Below the pieces are notes generated by a model, which was not told the origin of the DNA, did no database searches, and worked only from the letters and a program-made list of their open reading frames with translations. The translations under genes were made by a program, and so were the position numbers. 64,000 bases of DNA from Candidatus Nomurabacteria bacterium. Lineage in GTDB: Bacteria; Patescibacteriota; Minisyncoccia; Phycocordibacterales; UBA918. The stretch is taken from contig JACKGC010000001.1 in the NCBI GenBank assembly GCA_020632135.1, positions 372,241 through 436,240 on the forward strand, written 5' to 3'. Of the stretch, positions 8,483-64,000 are shown in pieces. The first letter of the stretch is position 1; each line of letters starts with the position of its first letter.

Positions 8483-8485
8483 GTT

Positions 8486-9548: not shown

Positions 9549-9556
9549 TGGTCTAG

Positions 9557-9629: not shown

Positions 9630-9664
9630 AAATATTAATGTAGGCACTATCGTACCCAATTTTC

Positions 9665-9699: not shown

Positions 9700-9734
9700 T
9701 TAGTACTTTGACCTGGTCGCTAATGCTCCGGTGC

Positions 9735-9908
9735 CTAGTCTGTCTTAAGGTACCGAGCTCGCTGGTCTATCGGATGTCGCGGGGTTGTACGAAGACTTGG
9801 TTGGATGCAACGATGGATCACCAGGTTTGGTAGCGAGCCACGATCTTCAATCGGCCGAGAGAAATTATCGATCTCTGCCCGGGGTTTGGATAGTTCAGTG
9901 GTGGTCAT
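9735..9908 (-). CDS. Small hypothetical protein (57 aa), absent from the ORF track
   Basis: GGAG RBS, then ATG. Sequence is MTTTELSKPRAEIDNFSRPIEDRGSLPNLVIHRCIQPSLRTTPRHPIDQRARYLKTD. A terminator lies downstream. Confidence 0.35.
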   Translation of the reverse strand: MTTTELSKPRAEIDNFSRPIEDRGSLPNLVIHRCIQPSLRTTPRHPIDQRARYLKTD

Positions 9909-9981
9909 GGGTTTCTCCTTTGAATGAGACCGGTAATGTTATAACTCTCTTTTTTCTGTCTGACAAGGTATACTGCTCTCC

Positions 9982-10254
9982 ATGATACAAATGCAGGCGA
10001 TCATCTCCGGGAAGGTGCAAGGTGTGGCGTATCGTGCGTACGTGCAGGAGTCTGCCACAGAGCTCGAGTTGGTTGGGTATGTGTACAACCAGTCAGACGG
10101 AAGTGTGCTCGTGGTGGCTCAAGGTGCAGGAGAAGTACTCAAGGAATTTGTGGAGTACTTGCACGAGGGTTCACTTATGGCGGTAGTTGAGAGCGTGGCG
10201 GTCGAATGGGGAAGTGTTGGGAAAACCTACGATGAGTTTTCAGTGTTGCACTAA
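9982..10254 (+). CDS. acyP: Acylphosphatase
   Basis: ISGKVQGVAYRAYV...GYVYNQSDGSVLVVAQG. TATACT-N7-ATG lies upstream. Confidence 0.9.
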   Translation: MIQMQAIISGKVQGVAYRAYVQESATELELVGYVYNQSDGSVLVVAQGAGEVLKEFVEYLHEGSLMAVVESVAVEWGSVGKTYDEFSVLH

Positions 10255-12479: not shown

Positions 12480-14393
12480 CTAATTCACAATGATCTTGGT
12501 TGGGGTACGGTAGCTGCTTTGTGGCAGCGCGTTCCAGCTCTGATCTGGTGCAGCGTCAGTATCGTTATAGTTGATACTGAGCAGTTGCATACGAGCAGTG
12601 GTGTTTGGTACACCAGGTAGGTGGGTCACGGTCAAGGTCACTGTCTCGGTGCTACCTTCTGGAATGTAGAAGTAGTTACCTTCCTCCTCAGCGCTTGAGG
12701 TTACGACCGGCGTGCCGGAAGCAGCAAGTGCATTGCCTAGGGAATCTTGCAGTTGGTAGTCAACACCGTCTGTACCAACTGGAATGTAGACATCTTGCCC
12801 AAAGGCGGCTACCGCAACACGGATCACGAAGGTGACATAGTCGTTGTTTGAGCCGCTCACTGAGGTCACTTCAGCTGTAGCGGTTGGGCTCTCGACGTCA
12901 GTACCCTTGGTGTAGAGCAGGTGTGTCTCTCCGGTGACCGCACCTTGGAGCTGCTCGCTATCGAGATCGTCACCACCCTCAGCGTCGATATCATCAGCGT
13001 CAATATGACCGACGATCGAGATGCCCTCAAACTCTTCATTGAGTGAACGGAAGTCGATCTCGACTGAGGCGGTGACGCGGTCGCCAGCGTCTATCTGCAA
13101 ATCGCCGTAATCAAACGAGAACGTGATGATGCCAGTAGCACCGTCGGTGACATGTTCATCAGTGTAAGTTTCGCCGTCGATGATGATGCGGGCATTGCGA
13201 ACGAAATCGCTCAGTGTGCCGCTGCTGACAGTGAATTGGATGGGGAGTTCGTAGATGTCGATATCGTTCTCACTGTCGTCAGTATCGAGATCAAAAGCGA
13301 ATACCTCCAAGTAGCCAGAGTTTCGATCATCCTTCACGCGTAGGACTGAAGCATCAGGATCATCGTCAGACCGTCGCGTAATGATCTCGTCAGAGGCGCC
13401 GGCTTCATCGATATTGAGGGTCACTGCGTCAGCGGTGTCGCCGATGTAAAGTGCAGCTCGGTCTGCATCAAGAGCGCGAATGCCCTCGTCGGGAATATAG
13501 GCGGTCCAGATTTCTCCGTTGTCAGTTCCACGGACGCCATTTTGCACATCGACGCGAACGGTGAGTTCTATTTCACGGCCTTCACGCATACGCCAGTCTA
13601 GTCCCGAGAGGCGAATTGTATAGTCGCCGTCAGTTGGCGAGTCCTCAATCCAGTTGTTTCGGTTTGAGGCATCAACACGAGCGAGTCGGGTGTTGCTATT
13701 CCAGATCGATACTTCCTCGAAGGTGTCCCATGGGTCATCTTCATCGTTGGCATTGTCTGGGGTAAAGCCCACCTCAACGCGATTGAGTCGTGCATCACCG
13801 TCTTCGACTCGGAACGAGACCTCCATGATCTCAGCATTACCGTCGCCTTCTTCTAAGTCAGTGTTATTACCATCTTTTACTGTGAAGCGCTCTAGTGAAG
13901 CTTCGCCGCTGAGTGGCGGCTCAGGCTCAGGCTTTGGTTCAGGAGTTGGAGTGGGGGTTGGAGTGGGGGGTACCGTACAGAGGCTCTGTGCCTTTGCCAT
14001 GGTTAGAGGACCATAGTTGTAGCCGAGCGCCGGGCTAATACCTTGTGTCGCCTGGAATTGTTGCAGTGCAGTTTGCGTTTGGGCACCAAAGTAACCAGTT
14101 GCGCCAGCGGGAATTACATGCCCCCGACTCATCAAGAATTGTTGCAGTACGGCCACTTGGCTACTGCGCTCACCATATGCAATATGTTGCTGTGGGTAGA
14201 CACAGACTGTTCCGCTCTGCATAGCCAAAAGTTGCGCCTGCAACGTGGCTATCTGTGTGAGTAAGCTTTGAATTTGAGCCTGCAGTTCTGCGTGGGTTGC
14301 AGCCTGGACTCTTGGGGCAGGGAGGGTGATACTTACGAGCAAAAGCGCGATGATACCACCAACCATGCCCCGATATAGGGTGCTTATTTTCAT
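12480..14393 (-). CDS. Secreted protein with a coiled coil, peptidoglycan-binding-like domain, PT/PE linker and large acidic C-terminal domain
   Basis: Signal/TM segment GGIIALLLVSITLPAPRVQA. PG_binding-like segment VAVLQQFLMSRGHVIPAGATGYFGAQTQTALQQFQ. Linker PPTPTPTPTPEPKPEPEPP. Confidence 0.6.
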   Translation of the reverse strand: MKISTLYRGMVGGIIALLLVSITLPAPRVQAATHAELQAQIQSLLTQIATLQAQLLAMQSGTVCVYPQQHIAYGERSSQVAVLQQFLMSRGHVIPAGATGYFGAQTQTALQQFQATQGISPALGYNYGPLTMAKAQSLCTVPPTPTPTPTPEPKPEPEPPLSGEASLERFTVKDGNNTDLEEGDGNAEIMEVSFRVEDGDARLNRVEVGFTPDNANDEDDPWDTFEEVSIWNSNTRLARVDASNRNNWIEDSPTDGDYTIRLSGLDWRMREGREIELTVRVDVQNGVRGTDNGEIWTAYIPDEGIRALDADRAALYIGDTADAVTLNIDEAGASDEIITRRSDDDPDASVLRVKDDRNSGYLEVFAFDLDTDDSENDIDIYELPIQFTVSSGTLSDFVRNARIIIDGETYTDEHVTDGATGIITFSFDYGDLQIDAGDRVTASVEIDFRSLNEEFEGISIVGHIDADDIDAEGGDDLDSEQLQGAVTGETHLLYTKGTDVESPTATAEVTSVSGSNNDYVTFVIRVAVAAFGQDVYIPVGTDGVDYQLQDSLGNALAASGTPVVTSSAEEEGNYFYIPEGSTETVTLTVTHLPGVPNTTARMQLLSINYNDTDAAPDQSWNALPQSSYRTPTKIIVN

Positions 14394-18186: not shown

Positions 18187-20679
18187 ATGAGACATGTCCA
18201 GTACGGCGTGGCGCGGACCGCGGGCGGCAAGTGCATGCGACGAGAACCGTCGCATGCGATGCATGTGCCGCACCGACATCACGTCTTCGATGAATACACG
18301 GTCAGTCTGGCCGATGGGAGCTTGATGCAAGTCCTCAGGCTCGAGGGGTTTCGTTTTGAGACAACAGATACAGAGGCGCTCGCCCGTAAGGCGGCTGCCT
18401 TCAACAATCTCTTGCGAAGCCAACACGAACACGTCTACCTCTACACCAACCTGATCCGTCGTCATGAGGATGCGCTCCCGGAGGGGGCGTTTCCACCGGG
18501 TTTCTCCCACGACCTCAACGAGGCGTGGTTGCAGGAATTCCGCGGCGGTAAGGTCTTCACCAACGACTACTATCTCACTATTGTTATGCGCGATCCGTTC
18601 GCGATGGCGAACTGGTGGGAGGAGTGGAAGATGCGATTGACACGTCGGTCGCAGACAGTTGGCCTGAGGGTACGTCAACAGCGTATGGCGAAAGAGTTGT
18701 CGTCCATTGTCACCTCGTTTCAGGGGTGGCTGCATGACTTCGGCACGAAACGTCTCGGGGTCAGTATACTGCACCCGGCAGGGAGTATGGTGCCAGTGCT
18801 TACTTCGGAAGTGCTGCAGCTGCTGTCGTACATCATCAATGGTGAGACAGCACCAGCGCGCTTGCCTTGCAGTACCTTGGCGGAAGCCACGTGTCAGCGG
18901 GAATGGTGGTTTCCAAATGGAACCTTCGTTTCAAAAGGAGTGTCGGAATCAGACACTTTTTATGGGGCGATGTTGTCGCTCCGAGAATATCCCAGCGAAG
19001 GGACTATGAATGGCATCTTTGATGACCTTCTCTCGCTACAGTTTGAGGTGGTGGTAAGTCAGAGCTTTGTGCGTGAACAGAATACGTTTGCACGCAAGCG
19101 GCTGGAGTTACAAAAGCAACGGTATATCTCAGCCAAGGAACACGAGCGAGTCATCAACAGTGTCGAAGACGCGATCGGGGAACTGGCTGCCAGTGAGGTC
19201 TGTTATGGACATCACCACCTCACCATCATGGTGCGGGCGGCGTCTCCAGAAGAACTCGAGTATCGGGTGGCGCTGATCAAACCTATCTTCTCGCACGTTG
19301 GCGTCGAGCTGGTGCGCGAAGGGCTCAACATGGAAGCGGCCTTCTGGGCCCAGTTGCCTGGCAATCGCGAGTATGCGATGCCACGTGGTTGGTCGTTGGT
19401 GAGCACTAAGAACATCGCTGACTTTGCCAGTTTCCACGCCTATGCGCGGGGAGAGGCGGGTGGTAGTTACTTAGGGTCCGCACTGTCGATCTGTAAGAGT
19501 AAGGGCAACACCCCCTACTTCATCAACCTCCATCAGGGAAAGAATGGGAGTACCTGCATTTTCGGTAAGACCGGATCGGGGAAAACGACCGCAGCTGCGT
19601 TTCTGGTCTCACAGTCTCAGAAATACGGCGGTCACACCATTATCTTCGACAAGGATGGCTCGTGGGAAAACTACGTGCGGGCGGAAGATGGTAACTATGC
19701 AACGGTGCGGCCGGGTGAACAAACCGGCTGGAATCCGCTGCAGTTGCCGGATACGCCAGAGAACCGACACTTCGTGAGCGGGTTCGTAAGTCTGCAGTTG
19801 AGTAAAACACTGAAGCAGTCACTGACTCGTGAACAAGAGCGACGGGTTACAGAAGCCGTCAGCCAGTTGTATGACGAATTCGAGCTTACGCAGCGACGTT
19901 ATGCTTTGCTGCGAGAGCTCCTCATCAACAAATCATTACAGGAGGCACTTGAACCTTGGATGGAAAAGGGGCAGTACGGTTGGCTGTTTGACAGCCCCGA
20001 ACACACGCTGTCATTTGACCAACCCATCACGGGGATCGAACTAGGATGGATCCTCGATCAGGGTGAGGTAGTGCGTACCCCGGCGGTATCGTTCCTGCTT
20101 TACTGCACCAAACAGGTGGTCGAGCGGGCACAGCTTCTGCGGATCATCTTGGAAGAAGCTTGGTTCTTATTGCGCGACGAAGCACTCGCCGCACAGTGTG
20201 AGGACTGGGTGCGGACCATGCGGAAGAAGGATGCCTTTCTTTTCTTTCTCTCGCAGAACCTTGATCTTGGCTCTCGAGCCGGGATGGCGATCTATGAGCA
20301 GAGCGCAACCAAGATCTTCTTCCCACCCTTTGCGGCGGAGCGGAAGGTCTACACTGAAACACTCGGGATCACCGAGGCGCAGTATGAGCTCATGTTCGGC
20401 GAGTCGGTTGAATCACGCACCATGCTCATTAAGCATGGTGAAGAAACGGTGGTGGGTGTGCTTGACCTCAGTGTCGTGCCAGAATACCTGCCGATCTTGG
20501 CGGGCGACAAAGAGTCGCTCCAACTAATGCGGAAACTCCGTGCTAAGCATGGTCCGCAGGCAGCTGACTGGCTGCCACACTTCAAAGTGGAGGTACTTCG
20601 TAATGAAAAAGCGAGCCTTGATACTACAGCTCATCGTAGCGACCATGGTAATGTTTGGGTCGAGCGGGATACCCGCTAA
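18187..20679 (+). CDS. virB4: VirB4-family T4SS ATPase
   Basis: 830 aa. Walker A is IFGKTGSGKTT. Length and layout are typical of VirB4/TrbE. AGGAG RBS. Confidence 0.95.
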   Translation: MRHVQYGVARTAGGKCMRREPSHAMHVPHRHHVFDEYTVSLADGSLMQVLRLEGFRFETTDTEALARKAAAFNNLLRSQHEHVYLYTNLIRRHEDALPEGAFPPGFSHDLNEAWLQEFRGGKVFTNDYYLTIVMRDPFAMANWWEEWKMRLTRRSQTVGLRVRQQRMAKELSSIVTSFQGWLHDFGTKRLGVSILHPAGSMVPVLTSEVLQLLSYIINGETAPARLPCSTLAEATCQREWWFPNGTFVSKGVSESDTFYGAMLSLREYPSEGTMNGIFDDLLSLQFEVVVSQSFVREQNTFARKRLELQKQRYISAKEHERVINSVEDAIGELAASEVCYGHHHLTIMVRAASPEELEYRVALIKPIFSHVGVELVREGLNMEAAFWAQLPGNREYAMPRGWSLVSTKNIADFASFHAYARGEAGGSYLGSALSICKSKGNTPYFINLHQGKNGSTCIFGKTGSGKTTAAAFLVSQSQKYGGHTIIFDKDGSWENYVRAEDGNYATVRPGEQTGWNPLQLPDTPENRHFVSGFVSLQLSKTLKQSLTREQERRVTEAVSQLYDEFELTQRRYALLRELLINKSLQEALEPWMEKGQYGWLFDSPEHTLSFDQPITGIELGWILDQGEVVRTPAVSFLLYCTKQVVERAQLLRIILEEAWFLLRDEALAAQCEDWVRTMRKKDAFLFFLSQNLDLGSRAGMAIYEQSATKIFFPPFAAERKVYTETLGITEAQYELMFGESVESRTMLIKHGEETVVGVLDLSVVPEYLPILAGDKESLQLMRKLRAKHGPQAADWLPHFKVEVLRNEKASLDTTAHRSDHGNVWVERDTR

Positions 20680-39939: not shown

Positions 39940-40200
39940 CTACCCGTATAGCTCACTATGCGAGCCGGTGGCAACCAAAATCAATACCCCTTCATATGAG
40001 TCATCAAAGATCACTCGTATGTCAGCTGTCACATCGAAACTCCAGAGTCCAGTATATTTTCCTTTGAGGCTATGCGTGTGCAGCAGGGAATGGTTTTTGT
40101 CCTGCAAAAACAAGGTTAGTCGTTCAGCAAATTGTTCTTTGGTTTTTGCGGGCAACTTCTTGTATTGTTTCTCAAACTGCTTCGATTTTGCAATCCGCAT
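39940..40200 (-). CDS. RelE/YafQ-family type II toxin (second copy, diverged)
   Basis: ...HTHSLKGKYTGLWSFDVTADIRVIF...ATGSHSELYG. Confidence 0.8.
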   Translation of the reverse strand: MRIAKSKQFEKQYKKLPAKTKEQFAERLTLFLQDKNHSLLHTHSLKGKYTGLWSFDVTADIRVIFDDSYEGVLILVATGSHSELYG

Positions 40201-40203
40201 AGA

Positions 40204-40470
40204 CTATTTGTTGAGTGACGCAACTAAGTCGTCAACAGAATCAAATTCTTCTAGTCTGCCAGCTTCGTAGTCAGCCCGTGCTTCTTTAACTAAACGTTCA
40301 AGAAATGGAGTCATGCGAGGGGCAGAGGATAGTTCGAGTTCACCGGTGCGAGCAAACTGACTGAGGGTAGCATTTACCACTGCGCTCAATGAAAGTCCGA
40401 GTTCTTTGGCTCGCTTTTGAGCGTTCTTCTTGACGGTATCATCGATTTTTAAATTGACCTGGGTTTTCAT
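40204..40470 (-). CDS. RelB/DinJ-family antitoxin (second copy)
   Basis: NLKIDDTVKKNAQKRAKELGLSLSAVVNATLSQFA. Promoter TTGACG-N17-TATACT-N8-ATG lies upstream. Confidence 0.8.
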   Translation of the reverse strand: MKTQVNLKIDDTVKKNAQKRAKELGLSLSAVVNATLSQFARTGELELSSAPRMTPFLERLVKEARADYEAGRLEEFDSVDDLVASLNK

Positions 40471-40536
40471 GTACCCAAAGTATATATAGATGGTATTCCT
40501 ACGTCAAGTACTCAAAATTAGCAATTGTTCTCTTTA

Positions 40537-40673
40537 GGGCACGTACTGTCCATGGGTGCGACCAGATTATTAAAGGGCTTGCGACTATAAAAATAGAAGT
40601 GCTCTTGTGGCGGAACCAGTTTAAGGTAATGACGGTTGAGTGGCTGGAGGTGGTGAGAGAGGTGTTGAGATAA
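40537..40673 (+). repeat. Junction element R3
   Basis: GGGCACGTACTGTCCATGGGTGCGACCAGATT...TATAAAAATAGAAGTGCTCTTGTGGCGGAACCAGTTTAAGG... Confidence 0.85.
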
Positions 40674-40766
40674 ACTGGTCATGGCAGTCACTTGCGGATG
40701 TTGTTTTTAGTTACTTTGTTTTGAGAAAATTGGTAGTATTGATGGTAATAATGAGCGGATGTTGTT

Positions 40767-42068
40767 ATGCGTGAACGGTTTGGAAACTTCAATAATCCCC
40801 GCACTGAAGGAGTAAGAAAACGAGGTATCGACATAAAGGGTCCGAGTGACATGCTTGAGAGTCATGAAGCATTTGCCCAGTCAGTTGAGTCGTTGACTGA
40901 AGACCTGGCACAAGGTGTCCGTTTTGAGCAGAGTGCTTATCGGCTTACTGAAAGTGGTGATTTTACCAATCGGTATCGAGTAACTTTTTCTTCGGCAGAA
41001 GATATTGAATTTGAGATTAACACAAAAAATATCCCGAGCCATCTCCAACGTCAGCTGATAAATAATGAGTCCGTCGTGTGCTCTATAAACGGCGGTTTTT
41101 TCTTTTTAACTGATGATAAATTAGATAATCCTCCAAAAGAGATTGTTTTAGGTACAATTGTTCGAGATGGTGTGTTGTGTGGAGTACAATCGCATGATCG
41201 TCCTGTGCTTTGGGTTGATACAGACGGAGTTTTGCAGGTGACGGAAGTGATAAGCGAAGGTTATGTCACGATTGGAAATGCGATGTTTTCATGGGTAGGG
41301 AACAATTCTGGTCAGAAAAATGCAGAGGTGAAATTATTTGGCGTTGATAGTTGTGTCATTCAGCATGTGAGTGATTCAGAGACGGGTACTAAACGGGTTT
41401 TAAATGAGGAACTGAGTAAAACCCCAGCGAAAACCGATATCGTGGACATTGTGTGTGAGATAAGGGAAGGGTGTCTGGTGGTTTCTGAGAAGCGAGAAGG
41501 AGGTGGTACTTCTTTCTTGGAAGGGAATTTCCTTTTACAAGGAGACAAAGAAGCACTTCAAAATATCTCAGTAGGGGATATGGTTACTATCAATTACAAC
41601 GATCTTAATGTGAAAGAAATAAGAAATGCTATGACAGTCGGTCCTTCAGTATTTCATTTTGACGCGGAGCGTGATCATCCGATTAATCACGATAGGTCAT
41701 TGGGAGATAAACCATCTTTCTCTGATCGTCGCATGGCTCGTTCGGTTGTTTACAAAACGATAAATGATGCTGTCACATTCGAGGTGTTTGATGGAGCGCC
41801 TAAAACAGCCACATTTCAAGGTGTTACCCCAGAAGAGGTTGCTGATATTCTCAAGCAAAATGAGGTCGGTTTGGAGTGGGCGTATTTTCTTGACCCCGGA
41901 CAGTCTGCTCGATTGGCAGTACGTCACGCGGATGGCTCGGTTGAAGGGTATGGGAACCGTCATTATGTGCGGTGGCCAAGTTCATCTAATCAGCCGTATC
42001 TTTGGGCAGGAGAACACGGTCGAGCAGTACCCTCAGTGGTAAATGCTATACTGAAGCACAAAAAGTAA
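40767..42068 (+). CDS. DUF2233 / phosphodiester glycosidase-like protein, with no signal peptide
   Basis: CSINGGFFFL, MTVGPSVF and AYFLDPGQSARL resemble the NAGPA/DUF2233 motifs (INGGFF ... LDGGGS). Confidence 0.55.
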   Translation: MRERFGNFNNPRTEGVRKRGIDIKGPSDMLESHEAFAQSVESLTEDLAQGVRFEQSAYRLTESGDFTNRYRVTFSSAEDIEFEINTKNIPSHLQRQLINNESVVCSINGGFFFLTDDKLDNPPKEIVLGTIVRDGVLCGVQSHDRPVLWVDTDGVLQVTEVISEGYVTIGNAMFSWVGNNSGQKNAEVKLFGVDSCVIQHVSDSETGTKRVLNEELSKTPAKTDIVDIVCEIREGCLVVSEKREGGGTSFLEGNFLLQGDKEALQNISVGDMVTINYNDLNVKEIRNAMTVGPSVFHFDAERDHPINHDRSLGDKPSFSDRRMARSVVYKTINDAVTFEVFDGAPKTATFQGVTPEEVADILKQNEVGLEWAYFLDPGQSARLAVRHADGSVEGYGNRHYVRWPSSSNQPYLWAGEHGRAVPSVVNAILKHKK

Positions 42069-42070
42069 TT

Positions 42071-42682
42071 ATGTACACAACGAGAAAATCTTTCCCTAAA
42101 GATTTGCCACCAAAAAAAACCTTCTTTTGTATTTTGTGTGGAGCACCGTCAGTTGCTAAGGCGGTACAAGAGAATGGCACAGTCGTTTTTAAGTGTAGTA
42201 TTTGTAATGGTACGAATGAGCGTTTTTTAGCGTGGGATCCTGGTATGGAACAATTTTTCAATCAGGATAACGAGTTGGTGCACGGTAGTGTTGGGGTGAT
42301 CGTGCAGAATCAAAATAAAGAAATACTACTTTTTAAACGGGTGAAGTATCCGTTTTTGTGGACGATTCCAGCTGGACATTTAGATAAGGATGAGGATCCC
42401 AAGCAGGCTGCTACTCGTGAGTTACATGAAGAAACACAAATAAACGCGAGTGAGTTGCGGTCGGTCTTTGCGGGAGAAATTCGTGGCGATAGCTGTGTTG
42501 GTGGTGCTGACATTCACTATTGGCATGCGTATGTGTATCAAGCAAGTGATGATGTTGAGCCGATCATTGAAGCTGAGGAGGGAAGAGAGTGGGGTTGGTT
42601 TGTGCTCAGTGAGTTACCAGAACTAACCATGCCAGTCGGCTATTTACTATCTTTGTCCGAGGTGTGTGTGACTCTGGAATGA
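42071..42682 (+). CDS. Zn-ribbon plus Nudix hydrolase (NudC-like architecture)
   Basis: CILCG...CSICNG followed by the Nudix box GHLDKDEDPKQAATRELHEETQI. Starts 3 nt after the upstream stop. Confidence 0.75.
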   Translation: MYTTRKSFPKDLPPKKTFFCILCGAPSVAKAVQENGTVVFKCSICNGTNERFLAWDPGMEQFFNQDNELVHGSVGVIVQNQNKEILLFKRVKYPFLWTIPAGHLDKDEDPKQAATRELHEETQINASELRSVFAGEIRGDSCVGGADIHYWHAYVYQASDDVEPIIEAEEGREWGWFVLSELPELTMPVGYLLSLSEVCVTLE

Positions 42683-42715
42683 TTTCCTCCATCTAAACGC
42701 AAAAAACAGCATTTA

Positions 42716-42842
42716 GTGGAACCAAAAGTCCTTGTTTCATTATGTTTCCTAGGTATCTAGGACAGTAGGGCACGTACTGTCTCTGGGGTGGAACCAGTTT
42801 GAGGAGATGTGTATTGAGTGGTTGGAAGAGGCGAGGATGGTG
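42716..42842 (+). repeat. Junction element R4; carries the full inverted-repeat core at 42760-42781
   Basis: GTGGAACCAAAAGTCCTTGTTTCATTATGTTTCCTAGGTATCTAGGACAGTAGGGCACGTACTGTCTCTGGGGTGGAACCAGTTTGAGGAGATG... Confidence 0.85.
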
Positions 42843-42882
42843 TTTTGTAAATTAGAATCTTGATATTGTATACTTTAAGCAT

Positions 42883-43302
42883 ATGGAAACATTGCCTTTA
42901 GGTAAGGTTGCTGCTTCAGCGGCAGTTATTAGAAGAAACAAGATTCTTTTATTACAACGTTCTGAAAAATCAAAACTATTTCCTGGATACTGGACCTTTC
43001 CTTCGGGGGGAATAGAGGAATTTGATCCCAATGCTGAATCAGCAGTCTCACGAGAAGTAAAAGAAGAAACAGGACTAGACTTTGTTCCAAAAAAGAAATT
43101 TGGTTTTTATGAGAGTCATGCGGGTGGTAAACGTCATTTTGCATTAGTCCATCTTGGTGTTAGTAAAGGAAAGTTACGACTCCAGGAGTCAGAAGTGATT
43201 ACCGCAAATTGGTTTACATATAAAGAAGCAAAGAAACTGAATCTAGCTTTTGCGTACCCAAATGTGATCAAAGATTTATACAAAAGTAAGCTGATTCAAT
43301 AA
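42883..43302 (+). CDS. Nudix hydrolase
   Basis: GGIEEFDPNAESAVSREVKEETGL. TATACT-N8-ATG lies upstream. Confidence 0.8.
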   Translation: METLPLGKVAASAAVIRRNKILLLQRSEKSKLFPGYWTFPSGGIEEFDPNAESAVSREVKEETGLDFVPKKKFGFYESHAGGKRHFALVHLGVSKGKLRLQESEVITANWFTYKEAKKLNLAFAYPNVIKDLYKSKLIQ

Positions 43303-43343
43303 AATTGCCCCAACGTAGACGTCGGGGCAATGGAGGTTTCGTT

Positions 43344-44477
43344 TTACTGAAGAGCTAGCCATTCGGCAGCGATTCGTTGCCTGATAGTATCTTTCACTTC
43401 ATGGATGACATGATGCTCAAGATTATTTTCAACTAAGCGCTTGCAACCTTCAGCCATTTCAGCAAAAACCAAATCCATGGTTTCGTCTGGACAACTACCA
43501 ACAAGGAAGTTTACCGCTGCTCCGTTTCTTAGGATGTGAACATTTTTTCCTGAAGGCAGTTCATATTCAGTTATCATTTTGCTGATATGACTGACTCTTT
43601 TGGCTCGATTTCTTACACCTGGCATGTCCAGTTCGTTTGCTTTCGAGCCAGCACTGGCCAAAATGATTCCGTCACGCGCATCTTGCATATCGGCGATATT
43701 GATGGCTTGAGTGCCTGTCGCGCTAATGACTATATCGCACGCATTGAGCAGTTCTTCAAGCGAGAGGCAAACGTTGTGTCGGTAGCTCCTTGCTTCAAGT
43801 AGCCTGAGAGGATTTTTGTCGAACACTATGGTGTGTGTGCCATTGGCCCGAGCAGCGGTAGCGACTCTTCTGCCAATCATGCCGTATCCTACGATACCGA
43901 CTTTCTTGCCAAAAGCGCTGATACCCACATCTCTTAACATCGAATCCACGGCGAACCATGCACTTTCGCCGACAAACGTAGCTTCGACGTCTTTGATCTC
44001 GCTCCGAGCAATTGAAATGATAGGCACGTTAATACCTGTCATTGTTTGAAGGTAGCGATTGTGTCCGAAGGTTGTGACTTCAAGTACGCCGATTGGTAGC
44101 TTTGTGCCTCGGGTGCTTAACTCACTGAGTGGTTTGGCAAAGTAGCCCCCTACATCGACTAAAGCCAGGGGAAGAGATGCTTTTTCTAGTTGTCGAGCAA
44201 TAGTTTCGTGGAGAATAGATGTGTTCTCCATGGTGTCGTAGTCAAGCTGCTCAACTCGTACTCCCATTCTTTCGATACTGGCGATCACGTCAGTATTTTT
44301 CGAAAATGGTTTCGCGAAGATGACGGGCACCTCATGTCCTAGTGACAGTAGGTGATGTACGAATTCTTGTGTGTCAGTCAAAGCATGTAGTATCCCCACG
44401 ATGCTCATCGTTGGTGCTTGAGCGAGGATGGACTTGGTGACAACAAGTTTCTCATTTGAAAAGTTGATCATGTTCAT
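43344..44477 (-). CDS. S-adenosylhomocysteine-hydrolase-like NAD-binding domain protein
   Basis: GKKVGIVGYGMIGRRVATAARANG...ISATGTQAINIADMQDARDGIILASAGSKANELD parallels the SAHH NAD domain. The N-terminal half is not recognisable. Confidence 0.5.
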   Translation of the reverse strand: MNMINFSNEKLVVTKSILAQAPTMSIVGILHALTDTQEFVHHLLSLGHEVPVIFAKPFSKNTDVIASIERMGVRVEQLDYDTMENTSILHETIARQLEKASLPLALVDVGGYFAKPLSELSTRGTKLPIGVLEVTTFGHNRYLQTMTGINVPIISIARSEIKDVEATFVGESAWFAVDSMLRDVGISAFGKKVGIVGYGMIGRRVATAARANGTHTIVFDKNPLRLLEARSYRHNVCLSLEELLNACDIVISATGTQAINIADMQDARDGIILASAGSKANELDMPGVRNRAKRVSHISKMITEYELPSGKNVHILRNGAAVNFLVGSCPDETMDLVFAEMAEGCKRLVENNLEHHVIHEVKDTIRQRIAAEWLALQ

Positions 44478-56391: not shown

Positions 56392-56817
56392 ATGGCAAAA
56401 AAACTACTAAAGCAGGTAAAAGTGCAGGCGGTTGGCGGTAAGGCTACCCCAGCGCCACCACTTGGTCCGGTGCTCGGACAAGCCGGTATCAACATCGGTG
56501 AGTTCGTCAATCAGTTCAACGAGCAGACTCGTGAGCGCATGGGCGACATCGTCCCTTGTGTGATCAATGTCTACGATGACCGCAGCTTTGACTTCACCGT
56601 GAAGGTGTCTCCAATGTCTCGCTTGATCCTCAAGAAGATCGGCAAGCCGAGCGGTTCTGGTAAGAATACCGTTTCTCAAGTTGGTACCATCACTCGCACG
56701 CAGGTACGTGAAGTAGCTGAGGAAAAGATGCCTGATCTCAATGCCGCTTCAATCGAAGCAGCGATGAAGACGGTAGAGGGAACCTGCTACTCGATGGGTG
56801 TAAAGGTGGTTGATTAA
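56392..56817 (+). CDS. rplK: Ribosomal protein L11
   Basis: KVQAVGGKATPAPPLGPVLGQAGINIGEFVNQFN. Confidence 0.95.
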   Translation: MAKKLLKQVKVQAVGGKATPAPPLGPVLGQAGINIGEFVNQFNEQTRERMGDIVPCVINVYDDRSFDFTVKVSPMSRLILKKIGKPSGSGKNTVSQVGTITRTQVREVAEEKMPDLNAASIEAAMKTVEGTCYSMGVKVVD

Positions 56818-56833
56818 TTACGTTACTCAAAAG

Positions 56834-56870
56834 AAAAGACGGGCAGCTTCGCTGCCCGTCTTTTCTTTTT
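56834..56870 (+). terminator. Terminator after rplK (no rplA follows)
   Basis: GACGGGCAGC-ttc-GCTGCCCGTC followed by TTTTCTTTTT. Confidence 0.8.
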
Positions 56871-56895
56871 ATAGAGAAACTGCCCGATTTAATCA

Positions 56896-56986
56896 TGCGA
56901 AGGAAAGGCCTCCGCAAACAAACATGTGCGAAGGAAAGGCCTCCGCAATCTAGGCCTCCGCAATCTAAGGAAGTGCTCTTGTGGTG
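56896..56986 (+). repeat. Nested direct repeats plus an exact copy of the 18-mer GGAAGTGCTCTTGTGGTG, upstream of the cofE-like gene
   Basis: TGCGAAGGAAAGGCCTCCGCAA occurs twice (56896, 56927). AGGCCTCCGCAATCT occurs twice (56937, 56952). The 18-mer is at 56969-56986. Confidence 0.75.
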
Positions 56987-57016
56987 CTTTTCTAAAAACA
57001 CTCTATACTAGCGCGT

Positions 57017-57727
57017 ATGCAATTCATTCCGGTCAAAACCCGCATACTGCAGCCGCCCAAAGATGACTTGCTTGCTGTACTCGATGTAAGTCTCACTGAC
57101 CTTCAGGCGGGCGATGTGCTGGTGGTGAGCTCGAAGGTGTTAGCAATTCACGAGGGACGTTGTGTGCCAGGAGGGGAGTACGATGTGGCGGCGCACATCG
57201 CCCGCGAAGCTGATGTGGTCATACCACGGCCAGACCGTCCATCACCACTTACCCTCATCAACCACACGATAGTCGGAGGGGCTGGAGTTGATCGGAGTAA
57301 CAGCAATGGCTATGTCACATTATTGCCACGTGATCCTTTTCTGAGCGCGCGACGTATCTACGAGTATACGACCAAGCGCTTTGGCACCACAGAGCTCGGG
57401 GTGATCATTACCGACAGTCACTCAGTGCCATGTCGCTACGGCGCGCAAGGTGTGGCGATTGGCTGGTGGGGCTTCCAGCCCTTAGTAGATCATGTCAATA
57501 AAGCTGATCTTTTTGGACGCAAAATTCAGTATGAACGTTCCAACTTAGCTGATGGCGTTGCGGCTGGTGCAGTGGTGGTGATGGGGGAGGTCGCGGAATG
57601 TACGCCGCTGGTTATTGCACGCAACGTGCCAAATCTTCTGTTTACTACTGAAAACACCAAGGATAAGCTCTTTTGTCCACCAGAAGACGATATTATGAAA
57701 GTACTCTACAAAGACTTTTTGACGTAA
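57017..57727 (+). CDS. F420-0:gamma-glutamyl ligase (CofE)-family protein
   Basis: TATACT-N7-ATG upstream. GDVLVVSSKVLAIHEGR...GVIITDSHSVPCRYGAQGVAIGWWGF. Confidence 0.7.
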   Translation: MQFIPVKTRILQPPKDDLLAVLDVSLTDLQAGDVLVVSSKVLAIHEGRCVPGGEYDVAAHIAREADVVIPRPDRPSPLTLINHTIVGGAGVDRSNSNGYVTLLPRDPFLSARRIYEYTTKRFGTTELGVIITDSHSVPCRYGAQGVAIGWWGFQPLVDHVNKADLFGRKIQYERSNLADGVAAGAVVVMGEVAECTPLVIARNVPNLLFTTENTKDKLFCPPEDDIMKVLYKDFLT

Positions 57728-57805
57728 TTGAGCTCCGTATCCGCACTTATTCGTGGTTTGTTGACAGGCCCTCCACACGTAGTATGCACATGCTAAAATT
57801 ACCAC

Positions 57806-60800
57806 ATGTCAGGTACTCGGTACCGAACGTTTGTGGTAGTCGGAGCCGTCCTCCTCGCGCTTTTCGCTATGTACTGGAGCGGCTTCTTCACTACCACCCA
57901 TTCCATCACCGACGACCTCGCCCAGTTCGACCTCGTCGGAGAGCGAGTTGAGGACGACTTCACCCAGTACCCACTGGTATCATTAAACGACGAGTACACC
58001 CTCACCGATACCCTCAAGGACGGCGTCGAGATCACCTATGGCAGCCAAGCCAGTACTACTTTCAATTCTCCTGACCTTAGTCAGTCTCTGTCACTCCAGT
58101 TCCCAAAGTCTCTCTCAGAACCCCTCACCATCACGCTCCCGGGCAATCGCACCTTCACTGTCACCCACAACGTGGAAGGTCACTACCAGAGTGAGCTCCT
58201 CACTAACACAACGGCCGCGACTGACCCGCTCCGCTTCGGCGCACGCTCCGAGGCGCTAACCCAAGTCGAATCTGCCGAAGCGGAGGAGTCAGTCGCGGCC
58301 GAAGCAACCCCCACCTACCTCAAGTACACCTCCCCCAACTCCCGCACCCACACGTACTACGCCTACCAGAAGGACCAAGCCGCCGGCTACCGCAACTTAA
58401 AGCACTGGACCATCTACCAAAGCGGTACCGGCCAAGAGACCGCCTCATACACCTTCGCTAACGCCCACCTCAAGACCAACGACCGGGGGGAAGTGGAAGT
58501 CCGCTATCTAGGGACTTACGAGGTCCCTAGATCGGGGGAAGAGGGAGGAGGAGCGGTCGAGGCTGACCTCTGGGCCCGTGCTCAGGCCGTCCTTGCAAAA
58601 GACGCCCTTCTAAACATCGAGAACCAACCCCCTGATCTCACCATCCCCGCCCCGTACACCATCGATGCCCAAGGCAACCAGGTCACTCATGAGTGGGTGG
58701 TCACCCCCCAAAGTGCTATCGACCCGTCTGATACTTCCGGCAACTACGTCCTCTCCGTCTCTTTCGAGGTACCGCTCCTTGGCTACCCAATTGCGCTCGA
58801 TCCAACCCTGCAGTTTACCGCACCCGGCACCAGCAACTCAGGTGACGTCATCACCGGCGAAAAGACAAGCAGCAACTTCGGCACCAGCATGACCACCGGC
58901 GACTGGAACGGTGACGGCAAGACCGACCTGGCGGTGGGGGCCAGTGGCTACGATAACATTGGAGGAGAGGGGAGGGTCTACATCTTCTGGTCTTCCAGCC
59001 GACCAGATAATACTGCTGAGGCCGACGTCATCTTGACTGGTCAAAGCACAATCAATGAATTTGGCCACTCCCTCGCGACCGGCGACTTCAACGCCGACGG
59101 CACCGACGACCTGGTGGTAGGGGCTCGAGGATACGGCAGTAGTCAAGGACGAGTGTATACCTTCTACGGCGGCAGTCTCGAGGGTGGGGTAGCAAACACT
59201 GTTGCTGACGATATCATCACCGGTGAAGCTTCCTTTAATTTTTTCGGTCAATCGCTTGCAGTCGGCGATTTCGATGCTGATGGTCGGGATGATCTCGCGG
59301 TTGGAGCAAATTATTATAGCGTCGGCTCATTTACCTTGGATGGCCGTGCTTACATCTTCTATGGTGACGGCTCCATCCCCACCACCGCTGGCACAGCCGA
59401 CGTCACCCTAACCGGCGAAGCTGCCAACAACAACTTCGGCTCCTCCCTCACCACCGGTGACTACAACGCCGACGGCACCGACGACCTGGCCGTGGGCGCC
59501 TACTTCTGGAACAACAACGCCACCGGCCGCGCCTACCTCTTCTACGGCGGCAGCATGGTCTCTGAGAACGCCTCCGGCGCCGACGTCACCCTAACCGGCG
59601 AAGCTACCAGCAACCAATTCGGCTGGTCTCTCACCACCGGTGACTACAACGCCGACGGCACCGACGACCTGGCCGTGGGCGCCTACAGCTACACTACTAA
59701 CACCGGCCGCGCCTACCTCTTCTACGGCGGCAGCATGGTCTCTGAGAACGCCTCCGGCGCTGATATTATCCTGACTGGTGAGACTACCAACAACCGCTTC
59801 GGCCACTCCCTCATCACCGGTGACTACAACGCCGACGGCACCGACGACCTGGCCGTGGGCGCCTATCGGTACAACTCCTCCCAAGGCCGCGCCTACCTCT
59901 TCTACGGCGGCAGCATGGTCTCTGAGAACGCCTCCGGCGCCGACGTCACCCTAACCGGCGAAGCCACCAACAACAGCTTCAGCTATTCCCTCACGACCGG
60001 CGACTTAAACGATGACGGGAAAGACGACCTCCTCGTCGGAGCCTACCAGTACAACTCCTACCAAGGTCGCACCTACATCTTCTACTCCCAATCCGGGCAG
60101 GTGAACTTAAATGAGCACATCACCGGCGAGGGCACCGGCGACTACTTCGGCTCGGCTTTTGCCGTTGGCGACTTCAACAACGACGGCCGGGATGACTTAG
60201 CGGTGGGTGCGCCATATGACAACTCCAACACCGGGAAAGTGTACATTTTCTACAACGACGGTGACTACAGCACCCTAGCGAGTACGAGTGACGTGATTCT
60301 CACAGGTTCAACAACAGGCGACAAATTTGGCACCGCTCTCATCGCTGGTGACTTCAACAACAATGGCCAAGATGATCTAGTAATTACAGCAACGTTTTAT
60401 AACAGCAACCAAGGTGGCGCATTTATTTTTTATGGAGGTGACATTGTTTCAAACTCGGCATCTTCTGCAGACGTCATCATCACTGGAGAAGCGTCAAGCT
60501 ACCTGGGAGATGTATTGGAAAAAGGTGACCTCAATAACGACGGTGTTGATGATTTGGTTATTAGCTCCATTAACTACGGAACTGTAACGGGCCGCGCCTA
60601 CCTCTTCTACGGGGGTACGCTTTCAAGTAGCTCAGCTTCAGCAGCAGATGTTATTTTCACAGGTGAATCCACATTAGACGCCTTCGGCATCTCCCTCACC
60701 ACCGGCGACTTCAACGCCGACGGCACCGACGACCTCGCGGTCGGCGCCTTCCTCTACTCCGCACAGACCGGCCGCGCCTACCTCTTCTACGGCGGCGCTA

Positions 60801-63800
60801 TGGCAAGCGGCAACGCCTCCGGCGCGGATGTGACCTTGACCGGCGAGACCACCGGCAACGCCTTCGGCATCTCCCTCACCACCGGCGACTTCAACCACGA
60901 CGGCACCGACGACCTCGCGGTTGGTGCCTCCGGCTACACCACAAACACCGGCCGCGCCCACCTCTTCTACGGCGGCGCTATGACCAGCAAGAACGCCTCC
61001 GGCGCGGATGTGACCTTGACCGGCGAGACCACCGACAACCGCTTCGGCTATTCGCTCACGACCGGCGACTTCAACGCCGACGGCACCGACGACCTCGCGG
61101 TCGGCGCCTTCCACTACTCCTCATTTACCGGCCGCGCCTACCTCTTCTACGGCGGTACCTTTACTGCTTCCATGGAAGCCGCCACCAGCTCGAGCATTAT
61201 GATCACCGGCGACTCTGCAAACGACGACTTTGGCCTCTCCCTCGCCACCGGCGACTTCAACGCCGACGGGAAGGACGACTTGGTCATCGGCGCGCCGGGC
61301 TACGACAACGGTGGGGACACCGGCCGCATATACTTCTACGAAACCCGCGAGGACTACGCCTGGGAGATCCAGCGGCAGTCCTTGGCTGATGGCCTGCGCG
61401 TCGACCCCCTCATGGGCTACGAGATGAAGATCACGGGGGAGGGGACGGGCAACTCCTTCGCCTCCGCCATCGCCATGGCCGACCTCAACCACGACGGCAA
61501 GGATGACCTCATTGTGGGAGCGTCAGCCTATGATAGTACGTACATAAACGTTGGTAAGGTGTATATCTTCTACAACGACGGCAACTACCCAGCGCGAGCA
61601 GGTCGTGCAGACCATGTGATTGTGGGCGCGAACCTAAACGCTCTGTTCGGTACATCAATGACAACTGGAGACTTCAATGGGGATGGAGTGTTAGACCTGG
61701 CGGTTGGTTCGTATTCATACAGTTCCTACCAAGGCCAAACGTACATATTCTATGGCCCGATCACAGCAGATAGTATCGCAGATGCAGACGTCACGCTCAC
61801 TGGTGAGGCAGTTAGTTACTTTGGTGAATCCATGACCGTGGGTGACTTTAATGACGACGGAACAGACGACCTAGTGGTTGGTGCAACAGCATATAGTAGC
61901 TCAAACTTTACGGGCCGAGCATATATCTTTTACGGTAATTCTCTGACCGATGAAACTGCCACGGGCGCTGATGTAATATATACAGGAGAATCAACCTTTG
62001 ATTTTCTAGGCTACAGCTTAGCGGTTGGTGATTATAATAACGATGGTGTGGACGATCTAGCGGCTGGTGCGTATTTTTATGGTACTAACGTTGGTCGAGC
62101 TTATCTTTTCTTTAGTACTTCTACTCCTGGATCACGGAATGCCTCAGCCGCTGATGCGATATACACTGGTGAGAGCGGTAGCAGCTTTGGCGCCAGTCTG
62201 ACTGCAGGTGATTATAACCACGATGGAATTGATGATGTCGCTATCGGTGCTTCCGGATACACGACCAATACAGGTCGAACGTATCTATTTTTCAGCACCT
62301 CTACCCCTGGCTCGCGCAATGCCATAGCAGCAGACGTTATCTTAACTGGCGAAATCACCAACAACTACTTCGGCACCTCCCTCACCACCGGTGACTTTAA
62401 CCACGACGGCACCGACGACCTCGCGGTGGCGGCGGAAGGCTACGATGTCACCACGAACTCCAACGAAGGCCGCGCGTACATCTTCTACAGCACCTCCACC
62501 CCCGGCTCGCGCGCCGCTACAGCCGCTGATGTGATCCTCACCGGAGAAGGCGCGAGTAACTCCTACGGCGGTGCCCTCTTCTCTGGCGACCTCAACAACG
62601 ACGGGACCGACGACCTCCTCGTCGGCGCCGCAGGGTACAACTCCTCCCAAGGCCGGCTCTACTTCTACACCACCAACGACCGGCACATGACGGGCGAGGG
62701 AACGGACGATACCCTAGGTACTAGTTTTGCTACCGGTGACTTCAATCATGACGGAAATAATGATCTTGCAGTGGGGGCGCCGGGGTACGGCGCAAATCAA
62801 GGTAGAGCATATCTTTTCTATGGCGGTAGAAAAGCGACGACGAGCGCAAGTGGTGCTGATGTCGTCCTAACGGGTCAGACTACCGGTAACTACTTCGCTC
62901 GCTCCCTCGCTACTGGCGATTTCAATAATGACGGTACAGACGATCTGGTGGTAGGCGCTAGGGGGCATACGTCTAATACCGGCCGGGCGTATATTTTCTA
63001 TGGTGGAGAAATGGCAGCTTCGTTGACGGCGGGTGCTGATGAGGATGTTGCCATTTCTGGTGAAGGGGCAGTTGACTACTTCAGTAACTCATTTGCAGTT
63101 GGTGATTACAACGCAGATGGCAGGGATGACTTGATTGCTACAGCTATTGGATACACCTCCGTGTCATTTACTGGTAGAGCATATATTTTCTATGGCGGTG
63201 GGTCATTTCCCACAGCTGCTGCTGACGCAGATGTGATCATAGGCGGCGAGAACGCCGGAGACATATTAGGTTACTCCCTCACCACCGGTGACTTCAACGC
63301 CGACGGCACCGATGACTTTGTGATTGGAGCAACCGGCTATTCCTCTGGTGCTGGAACTGGTCGTGCTTATATATTTTACGGAGGCGCTCTTGCAAGTACA
63401 ACCGCCAGCAATGCAAATGTGATACTTACCGGCGAGGATACCAGCAACAATTTCGGCGAGGAGCTCAGCTCCGGCGACTTCAACGCCGACGGCACCGATG
63501 ACTTGGCGGTTGGTGCGTACTCCTACAACACATCCCAAGGCCGTGCATATATCTTCTACGGCGGTAGTATGACGAGCGAGAGCGCCTCTGCGGCAGACGT
63601 GATACTTACCGGCGAGGATACCAGCAACGTATTCGGCGCCTCCCTCACCACCGGCGACTTCAACGCCGACGGCACCGACGACCTGGCGGTTGGTGCATAC
63701 ACCTACAATACATCCCAAGGCCGTGCATATATCTTCTACGGTAACGAGCTTCGTACGACCGGCGCGGAAAATGCCAATGTCATTGTGACCGGCGAGAAGA

Positions 63801-64000
63801 CATCAAGTAACTTTGGTATCACACTCGCCGCAGGTGACCTCAACAGCAATGGCGTCGACGACCTTATTATCAGTGCCTCTGGCTACGACGACACCTCCAT
63901 CACCAACAACGACGAAGGCCGCGTGTACATCATCACCTCCGAAGCCGCGGCGGAGCGGTACTCGCATCACCAGCTGCAAGGGACGATCCAGTTCTTTGGT
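57806..64000 (+). CDS. Giant membrane-anchored FG-GAP (integrin-alpha-like) repeat protein; the 3' end lies beyond the window
   Basis: Not in the ORF track. I translated the frame by hand from the ATG at 57806 (an in-frame TAA lies at 57794) to 64000 and found no stop. N-terminal TM helix FVVVGAVLLALFAMYWSGFF. There are 28 units of about 60 aa with the pattern FGxSLxxGDFNxDGxDDLxVGA...GRAYxFYG. Confidence 0.9.
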   Translation, partial: MSGTRYRTFVVVGAVLLALFAMYWSGFFTTTHSITDDLAQFDLVGERVEDDFTQYPLVSLNDEYTLTDTLKDGVEITYGSQASTTFNSPDLSQSLSLQFPKSLSEPLTITLPGNRTFTVTHNVEGHYQSELLTNTTAATDPLRFGARSEALTQVESAEAEESVAAEATPTYLKYTSPNSRTHTYYAYQKDQAAGYRNLKHWTIYQSGTGQETASYTFANAHLKTNDRGEVEVRYLGTYEVPRSGEEGGGAVEADLWARAQAVLAKDALLNIENQPPDLTIPAPYTIDAQGNQVTHEWVVTPQSAIDPSDTSGNYVLSVSFEVPLLGYPIALDPTLQFTAPGTSNSGDVITGEKTSSNFGTSMTTGDWNGDGKTDLAVGASGYDNIGGEGRVYIFWSSSRPDNTAEADVILTGQSTINEFGHSLATGDFNADGTDDLVVGARGYGSSQGRVYTFYGGSLEGGVANTVADDIITGEASFNFFGQSLAVGDFDADGRDDLAVGANYYSVGSFTLDGRAYIFYGDGSIPTTAGTADVTLTGEAANNNFGSSLTTGDYNADGTDDLAVGAYFWNNNATGRAYLFYGGSMVSENASGADVTLTGEATSNQFGWSLTTGDYNADGTDDLAVGAYSYTTNTGRAYLFYGGSMVSENASGADIILTGETTNNRFGHSLITGDYNADGTDDLAVGAYRYNSSQGRAYLFYGGSMVSENASGADVTLTGEATNNSFSYSLTTGDLNDDGKDDLLVGAYQYNSYQGRTYIFYSQSGQVNLNEHITGEGTGDYFGSAFAVGDFNNDGRDDLAVGAPYDNSNTGKVYIFYNDGDYSTLASTSDVILTGSTTGDKFGTALIAGDFNNNGQDDLVITATFYNSNQGGAFIFYGGDIVSNSASSADVIITGEASSYLGDVLEKGDLNNDGVDDLVISSINYGTVTGRAYLFYGGTLSSSSASAADVIFTGESTLDAFGISLTTGDFNADGTDDLAVGAFLYSAQTGRAYLFYGGAMASGNASGADVTLTGETTGNAFGISLTTGDFNHDGTDDLAVGASGYTTNTGRAHLFYGGAMTSKNASGADVTLTGETTDNRFGYSLTTGDFNADGTDDLAVGAFHYSSFTGRAYLFYGGTFTASMEAATSSSIMITGDSANDDFGLSLATGDFNADGKDDLVIGAPGYDNGGDTGRIYFYETREDYAWEIQRQSLADGLRVDPLMGYEMKITGEGTGNSFASAIAMADLNHDGKDDLIVGASAYDSTYINVGKVYIFYNDGNYPARAGRADHVIVGANLNALFGTSMTTGDFNGDGVLDLAVGSYSYSSYQGQTYIFYGPITADSIADADVTLTGEAVSYFGESMTVGDFNDDGTDDLVVGATAYSSSNFTGRAYIFYGNSLTDETATGADVIYTGESTFDFLGYSLAVGDYNNDGVDDLAAGAYFYGTNVGRAYLFFSTSTPGSRNASAADAIYTGESGSSFGASLTAGDYNHDGIDDVAIGASGYTTNTGRTYLFFSTSTPGSRNAIAADVILTGEITNNYFGTSLTTGDFNHDGTDDLAVAAEGYDVTTNSNEGRAYIFYSTSTPGSRAATAADVILTGEGASNSYGGALFSGDLNNDGTDDLLVGAAGYNSSQGRLYFYTTNDRHMTGEGTDDTLGTSFATGDFNHDGNNDLAVGAPGYGANQGRAYLFYGGRKATTSASGADVVLTGQTTGNYFARSLATGDFNNDGTDDLVVGARGHTSNTGRAYIFYGGEMAASLTAGADEDVAISGEGAVDYFSNSFAVGDYNADGRDDLIATAIGYTSVSFTGRAYIFYGGGSFPTAAADADVIIGGENAGDILGYSLTTGDFNADGTDDFVIGATGYSSGAGTGRAYIFYGGALASTTASNANVILTGEDTSNNFGEELSSGDFNADGTDDLAVGAYSYNTSQGRAYIFYGGSMTSESASAADVILTGEDTSNVFGASLTTGDFNADGTDDLAVGAYTYNTSQGRAYIFYGNELRTTGAENANVIVTGEKTSSNFGITLAAGDLNSNGVDDLIISASGYDDTSITNNDEGRVYIITSEAAAERYSHHQLQGTIQFFG

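Follow-up and report, generated by a model that had tools for sequence, protein, structure and literature searches.

A 28-blade FG-GAP protein of a Candidatus Nomurabacteria bacterium, predicted to form four tandem propellers, as a candidate surface adhesin of a Parcubacterial family

Here we describe a giant gene at the end of a 64,000-nucleotide (nt) stretch of DNA from a Candidatus Nomurabacteria bacterium (assembly GCA_020632135.1, contig JACKGC010000001.1, positions 372,241 to 436,240 of the forward strand), which we call the window and whose first letter is position 1. Its product carries 28 FG-GAP-type units that, judged from the sequence throughout and from a structural model for units 15-28, form four tandem seven-bladed beta-propellers behind an N-terminal anchor and a family-specific N-domain. 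The family to which it belongs appears from database searches to be small, restricted to Parcubacteria and fixed in length. We favour reading the protein as a surface adhesin or lectin that resembles the head of integrin alpha subunits, and weigh this against a structural role in the cell envelope and against less probable explanations.

The gene is real and lies complete in the window but for five codons. From the ATG at 57806, which is the first start codon after the nearest in-frame stop on its 5' side (57794), frame 1 of the forward strand runs to 64000 through 2,065 codons, with zero stops, and its 6.2 kb contain no frameshift. Among 5.8 billion proteins searched, MCB9812496.1 (P0001; 2,070 amino acids, aa) is 100% identical to the window protein; it is encoded on a 651-kb contig and bears the NCBI name 'FG-GAP repeat protein [Candidatus Nomurabacteria bacterium]'. 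As that protein ends five residues past the window (TIQFFG up to the edge, then TGTFR and the stop), the stop codon must lie at about 64016-64018 and the frame is not open-ended. The preliminary description of this DNA had proposed extending the contig to find the 3' end; an exact look-up of P0001 gave no gene record and an exact 44-nt search of metagenome contigs gave zero matches, and it is the identical protein that locates the end. The same description was right about the open frame of at least 2,065 codons between 57806 and 64000 and about its landmarks (F358-G359 at nt 58877, GEGRVYIFW at 58964-58990 and GRVYIIT at 63917). It had also called the gene missing from the list of open reading frames (ORFs). 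The gene is indeed absent there, with only antisense or out-of-frame ORFs in the region, because any ORF still open at the edge of the window is left off that list; NCBI annotates it, and it was thus not missed. The lesson for genome scanning is one of window edges: here the edge hid a gene that annotation had not overlooked.

The repeats are recognised by the Pfam FG-GAP profile (PF01839) in 27 above-threshold stretches, with 766 bits against a cut-off of 22.1 (E 9e-238), and a regular expression for the calcium-loop motif, D[FYWL][ND]x[DN]GxxD, finds this loop, of the integrin-type form DxNxDGxxD, in 28/28 consecutive units; the strict FG dipeptide is kept in 19/28. In the Pfam scan of the window protein no domains beyond FG-GAP types were detected. 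It is the irregular units that divide this array. Blades are about 60 aa long, and in the window protein units 7, 14 and 21 measure 56, 76 and 50 aa. In a MAFFT alignment of 63 near-full-length homologues, each comprises a hydrophobic segment, an N-domain, 28 units and a short tail, and the window protein matches them over its whole length. At 24/28 positions the units have a median of 59-61 aa; the remaining medians are 56 aa for unit 7, 74 aa for unit 14, 50 aa for unit 21 and 55 aa for unit 28, the last of the array. Units 7, 14 and 21 also close with boundary motifs of their own across the family (YIFYSQNGQxNTN, YxYETRxNxAWxxQ...R and YxYTFND), while the calcium loop is present in at least 89% of members at each of the 28 positions. 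These conserved lengths and boundary motifs are direct evidence, at the level of sequence, for the predicted plan of four times seven blades.

For the second half of the array, this plan is also supported by structure prediction. An AlphaFold2 (AF2) model of aa 1172-2070, covering units 15-28 and the tail and built from a 17-sequence alignment (A2), has a mean predicted local distance difference test score (pLDDT) of 81.6 and a predicted template modelling score (pTM) of 0.76; it contains 14 groups of four strands, and its last ~25 residues are of low confidence. Compared with the PDB by Foldseek, units 15-28 match integrin alphaV, alphaIIb and alpha5 at the top of the list (E about 1e-19), with template modelling scores (TM) of 0.62-0.66 when normalised to headpiece chains of about 450 residues. 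As the matched headpieces are of that size, each half of the model would superpose on one seven-bladed integrin propeller. Furthermore, the nearest PDB sequences to the propeller units are the calcium-binding blades of integrin alpha. The preliminary description had counted 28 FG-GAP-type units, proposed to check them with the Pfam profile and suggested that they fold as four propellers; the count and the profile agree with it, and the four-propeller reading is favoured by the model of units 15-28 and by the unusual linkers that follow units 7, 14 and 21 in this protein and in the 63 homologues.

The propellers are preceded by two further elements. A hydropathy scan finds aa 9-27 to be the sole transmembrane-like segment of the window protein, in agreement with the anchor first proposed for it, and a hydrophobic stretch occupies the N-terminus of most full-length homologues listed; it would act as a signal anchor or an uncleaved signal peptide. 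The ~320-aa N-domain that follows, described at the outset as a unique region of about 340 aa and confirmed as such by the family alignments, shows 30-65% identity to 27 homologues with 20 invariant columns (alignment A1), and ends in a near-invariant YPxALDPTLxFTAPG that leads into blade 1. Its AF2 model (pLDDT 81, pTM 0.78) shows a long helix, beta-sandwich elements and a second long helix. The N-domain has no Pfam family match and no PDB match in a profile search; by Foldseek nothing in the PDB is significant (best E 4e-3, TM 0.23), and in BFVD the hits, at E about 1e-6 and TM about 0.4, are limited to two phage proteins, both uncharacterised, which are not informative. Among 1.84 billion representative sequences its profile finds only 123 clusters, many of them truncated copies of the 28-blade protein. 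A few matches are to other giant proteins, of 3,000-4,300 aa, in which the domain's C-terminal half is used again. In P0150, P0151, P0153 and P0162 this half (profile positions ~130-307) recurs at residues ~440-615; the two of these scanned against Pfam, P0150 and P0153, carry FG-GAP repeats, and P0150 has DUF5122 propeller repeats as well. This half may thus behave as a mobile module, placed ahead of FG-GAP propellers. At the other end, the protein stops 25 aa past blade 28. The tail ends in a basic [RK]G[TS]xKx[RK]GxxKx[RK] in most homologues and reads QGTIQFFGTGTFR in the window protein, in which neither an LPXTG sorting signal nor an SLH domain was found (Pfam, NCBIfam).

Database searches find over 100 proteins that match the query along about 100% of its length, at 40-60% identity; they measure ~1,950-2,100 aa and are labelled Moran-, Pace-, Kaiser- and Nomurabacteria. 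Conservation of this kind implies that the family has a function. Two copies of the family lie ~24 kb apart on one Moraniibacteriota contig (L016 and L018, JAGOBM010000001.1), which points to paralogues in some genomes. Several third-party-annotation metagenome-assembled genomes (MAGs) that carry it bear the title 'uncultured Bdellovibrionales', in contrast to the otherwise Parcubacterial make-up of the family. The Joint Genome Institute name 'formylmethanofuran dehydrogenase subunit C' on many homologues (and 'NIF3 family GTP cyclohydrolase' on one) is spurious for a protein of Gly/Asp-rich repeats. A literature search found no paper pairing FG-GAP with Parcubacteria or Patescibacteria; a Peregrinibacteria paper with FG-GAP annotations concerns Cys-rich proteins and is a different case, the window protein having zero cysteines. 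What is already known is FG-GAP propellers in general and the generic NCBI annotation of the window protein. It is the combination in one protein of four propellers in tandem, blades in a constant number of 28, an anchor at the N-terminus and an N-domain confined to the family that appears to be undescribed.

The gene is further marked by identical DNA tracts within it. The 55-nt stretch first noticed at 59526, 59706 and 59886, with its 180-nt period, is present and extends to 56-80 nt. In total, 27 exact repeat pairs of at least 28 nt occur, some of them between different propellers, whereas the longest in 20 codon-shuffled controls is 16 nt. This excess bears out the intragenic recombination that the preliminary description had proposed. 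Its alternative, expansion, is not supported: all 63 aligned homologues have 28 units. Tandem Repeats Finder (TRF) reports three 180-nt arrays (Table 1). Units 4-6 are mutually 80-84% identical, against 58-65% to the same-position unit of the closest homologue, and within the orthologous genes at loci L004 and L005 tracts of 141 and 238 nt recur exactly. For the inner blades we reject orthology by position, as the best match lies at the same position in a homologue for just 0-5 of the 28 units, and those that do so are boundary units (7, 8, 14, 21 and 28). Because the blade number is held at 28 across the family, we read the identical tracts as probable gene conversion between blades under a fixed copy number and not as expansion. 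In an alignment of 528 units of 60 aa, strands and calcium loop hardly vary, and entropy peaks at columns 6-13 (around the FG) and 33-38, both dominated by Y, S, N, T and G. Whatever its function, the gene offers a clean natural example of repeats homogenised by gene conversion while their number stays fixed.

Table 1. Features of the giant FG-GAP gene and its product, in window coordinates.
Feature	Position (nt)	Strand	Basis or remark
CDS (coding sequence) of the 2,070-aa FG-GAP protein	57806..64000	+	window holds codons 1-2065; last 5 and stop just past 64000
Promoter-like TCCACA, 16 nt, TG-TAAAAT	57772..57799	+	ends 6 nt before ATG; consensus scan, weak evidence
Single N-terminal hydrophobic helix, aa 9-28, preceded by R5 and R7	57830..57889	+	hydropathy scan
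N-domain, aa 29-345, family-specific, predicted helix and beta-sandwiches	57890..58840	+	alignment A1; AF2
Predicted propeller 1, units 1-7, aa 346-773	58841..60124	+	Pfam, alignment; unit 7 ends YIFYSQSGQVN
Predicted propeller 2, units 8-14, aa 774-1207	60125..61426	+	unit 14 has the conserved long linker YFYETREDYAWEIQ...R...G.E, 76 aa
Predicted propeller 3, units 15-21, aa 1208-1629	61427..62692	+	alignment, AF2/Foldseek; unit 21 ends YFYTTND
Predicted propeller 4, units 22-28, aa 1630-2045	62693..63940	+	AF2, Foldseek
C-terminal tail, aa 2046-2070	63941..64000 (last 5 aa outside window)	+	low-confidence in model
180-nt array, units 4-7	59396..60085	+	TRF; exact tracts 56-80 nt
180-nt array, units 11-13	60678..61155	+	TRF; exact tracts 38-52 nt
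180-nt array, units 26-27	63410..63796	+	TRF; exact tracts 28-32 nt

With the propellers of integrin alphaV, alphaIIb and alpha5, the window protein shares rings that are predicted to have seven blades of four strands each, as well as the FG-GAP consensus and, between strands 1 and 2, the DxD/NxDGxxD calcium loop. The differences are considerable. The window protein has four putative propellers per chain where integrin alpha has one, and its calcium loop is found in 28/28 blades, whereas integrins carry it in 3-4 of 7 (PMC3192720). Its anchor is N-terminal instead of C-terminal, its N-domain is unrelated, Pfam detects no thigh, calf or I domains in it, and no beta subunit is apparent. A metazoan integrin alpha subunit can thus be ruled out, given the N-terminal transmembrane segment, a domain content of FG-GAP types only and an end 25 aa after blade 28. 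The bacterial integrin-type seven-bladed propellers have regular blades with a calcium motif in every one and, in their 3-4 loop, a 'cage' motif that includes a conserved Pro; some are arranged in tandem, two being the largest number reported, no transmembrane helix was described, and a cytoplasmic role was proposed (Chouhan et al. 2011, PMC3192720). The window protein is likewise highly regular, with the calcium motif in each blade, and departs from these in having four predicted propellers, a transmembrane anchor and a family-specific N-domain. The cage Pro occurs in 9/28 of its units, many of which read GGSMVSENASGADV, against a family consensus of ...NDGSIPTT.... For function, the analogy we favour is with VCBS/FG-GAP propeller lectins (VCBS superfamily: PMC8023676), in which integrin-like propellers serve as multivalent sugar-binding modules. 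Tachylectin and the fungal lectin PVL are examples. This is a resemblance rather than an established membership; those lectins are single, small, soluble propellers.

At a probability of roughly 0.55, we propose that the protein is an integrin-alpha-head-like surface adhesin or lectin, inserted N-in/C-out, with calcium-stabilised blades and with ligand binding by variable loops of the upper propeller faces. Its helix would be inserted by the Sec pathway, leaving ~2,040 residues outside the cell of this Parcubacteria (candidate phyla radiation, CPR) bacterium. In keeping with such a location, arginines stand ahead of the single hydrophobic segment and the protein lacks cysteine; in related genomes a surface context is suggested by the second giant protein, with Laminin_G_3, TSP3, Big_13 or Peptidase_S74 domains, whose gene precedes this one at 17-18 of 30 loci. 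Calcium bound in 28 loops on the lower propeller face would make the blades rigid, and each ring would be closed by its first 'ITGE' strand pairing with the last blade of the same propeller. The latter step is suggested by the strand order and by the missing 3-4 loop at units 7, 14 and 21, and it would in turn explain why those three units lack a normal one. The upper faces would be made up of the two loops that hold nearly all of the sequence variation, in which Tyr, Ser, Asn and Thr are frequent, and would present multivalent binding surfaces to a ligand on a host or partner cell or in a matrix, most likely a glycan or a wall polymer. Such an adhesin or lectin would work without a beta subunit, and frequent gene conversion between blades would homogenise its framework while selection keeps the number at 28. 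A role in binding host cells is therefore a reasonable candidate and a plausible inference.

Several points weigh against the adhesin or lectin proposal. The topology is predicted from a hydropathy scan and the positive-inside rule, the variable loops are placed on the 'upper' face by analogy with integrin structures, and the structural model covers propellers 3-4 (units 15-28), with ring closure suggested by strand order. Context provides no functional clue in this lineage: the closest homologues, P0002 and P0003, share another neighbourhood, with DsbA-like genes upstream and toxin-antitoxin genes downstream, and no neighbouring gene is common to the window and those two loci. Moreover, repeat number is usually variable among adhesins. 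For one of them, a length and a number of blades held strictly constant would be unusual, and these fit a structural or scaffold role at least as well.

Such a role, which we regard as possible though improbable, would make the protein a structural component of the envelope: four rigid propellers acting as a spacer or scaffold of fixed size, part of a surface layer or a docking platform, without a foreign ligand. The near-invariance of length and blade number across the family speaks for it, as do the homogenised framework residues and the setting of related genes. Among 30 related loci drawn from an N-domain scan of a genome collection, mostly Moraniibacteriota and Paceibacterota MAGs, 17-18 place the 28-blade gene directly after another giant ORF on the same strand, of 2,700 to at least 3,270 aa, with Peptidase_S74 or Laminin_G_3, TSP3 and Big_13 domains. 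At nine loci the 28-blade gene is followed by a ~870-aa protein with 10-12 transmembrane-like segments and a C-terminal TPR region. This co-linearity with a second giant surface protein and a polytopic TPR protein resembles an assembly module, and the conserved three-gene cluster may be one for the cell surface. The partner genes were noted at L005:1733-9835, L013:1-9819 and L005:16241-18865, and also at L008, L009, L011, L016, L019, L021-L023, L026-L029 and L032; the ~870-aa polytopic protein looks GT-C- or O-antigen-ligase-like. Neither partner, however, has a homologue in the 64-kb window, and the partner genes are likewise absent from the loci of the closest homologues. In addition, the confinement of variation to two Tyr/Ser/Asn-rich loops looks more like binding sites than like a spacer, and no SLH or other lattice-forming domain was detected by Pfam or NCBIfam.

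A bolder version of the adhesin proposal, which we hold to be rather doubtful, would see the founding example of a surface organelle specific to Parcubacteria, in which a tetra-propeller of fixed geometry with 28 calcium sites, kept away from the membrane by a novel N-domain, is the principal device of host contact or recognition, and which in Moraniibacteriota would work as a module with the giant lectin- or fibre-like and the polytopic TPR proteins. If so, the concerted evolution of the blades, with variation confined to two loops, would let binding specificity be retuned while the geometry of the protein stays unchanged.

We consider it highly unlikely that the protein is instead of an inhibitor or immunity type, blocking peptidoglycan hydrolases as XAC2610 does, or a carbohydrate-active enzyme whose N-domain is a lyase or glycosidase carried by the propellers. 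The NCBIfam model XAC2610_fam (NF047539) does score 151 bits against a cut-off of 35, and the two have a repeated calcium-binding FG-GAP-like motif in common, but the score is a sum of weak matches to a short repeated motif and no single stretch exceeds the threshold. Furthermore, the model spans 89 positions and describes a small periplasmic immunity protein of completely different architecture. Together with those to BBS2_Mid, BBS1 and DUF7057, for which no single stretch passes either, this match was set aside as a repeat-motif cross-hit. As to an enzyme, GH94, GH161 and polysaccharide lyases have beta-sandwich domains that appear among the weak Foldseek matches of the N-domain, but these are not significant (TM 0.2-0.26, E above 1e-3), and neither Pfam nor a PDB sequence search detects a catalytic domain. 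Least probable of all is an assembly artefact, in which unit number or frame would stem from short-read collapse or mis-joining over near-identical 180-nt units: exact tracts of up to 80 nt recur at 180- and 360-nt spacing, and three short-read contigs with an identical upstream gene stop within the first ~750 nt of the giant gene, none spanning the repeats (L001-L003, from Logan SRR14234115 and SRR14234116 and from GCA_020428785.1 JAGQMD010000003.1, ending at about 57840, 57871 and 58547, ahead of the first FG-GAP unit at 58841-58877 and outside the repeats). Against this, the 28 units correspond one to one with those of the 63 homologues, down to the tail and the irregular units 7, 14 and 21, and their lengths match the family medians, the frame is intact over its 6.2 kb, and orthologous genes in independent assemblies have longer exact tracts with the same architecture.

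On its 5' side the gene is preceded in the window by genes for ribonucleotide reductase, an M10 peptidase, SIMPL, secE, nusG, rplK and an F420-ligase-family protein. At 56392-57727, rplK (L11) is followed not by rplA (L1) but by the F420-0:gamma-glutamyl ligase-family gene (PF01996), a family that is unexpected in a CPR genome as small as this one (about 0.65 Mb). Next comes the giant gene, which has a G+C of 0.55-0.60 and a negative GC skew. The promoter-like site ahead of its ATG has 9/12 consensus matches, weak evidence with 2 sites found where 0.9 are expected. Since that site ends so close to the ATG and no obvious (purine-rich) Shine-Dalgarno sequence occurs between the two (57772-57805), the mRNA may be leaderless or nearly so. 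Elsewhere in the window, an 830-aa VirB4/TrbE-type ATPase (CagE_TrbE_VirB, TraG P-loop) is encoded at 18187-20679, near a 637-aa protein with a peptidoglycan-binding domain (12480-14393); the P0002 and P0003 loci have a DUF87/TrwB-like ATPase ~3.5 kb downstream of the FG-GAP gene, a link with the window ATPase or a coincidence. G+C is lower at 8001-10000 (0.41) and 40001-44000 (0.43) than in the rest of the window (about 0.50-0.55), and these stretches hold a methyltransferase, an NAGPA-like phosphodiester glycosidase and a NUDIX protein.

Little is known of the means by which Parcubacteria, like other CPR bacteria, recognise partner cells and attach to them, and almost none have been cultured. 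This family presents a concrete and expressible target for that question, being conserved and single-copy-sized, with a predicted four-by-seven plan, 28 putative calcium sites and an N-domain found almost nowhere else.

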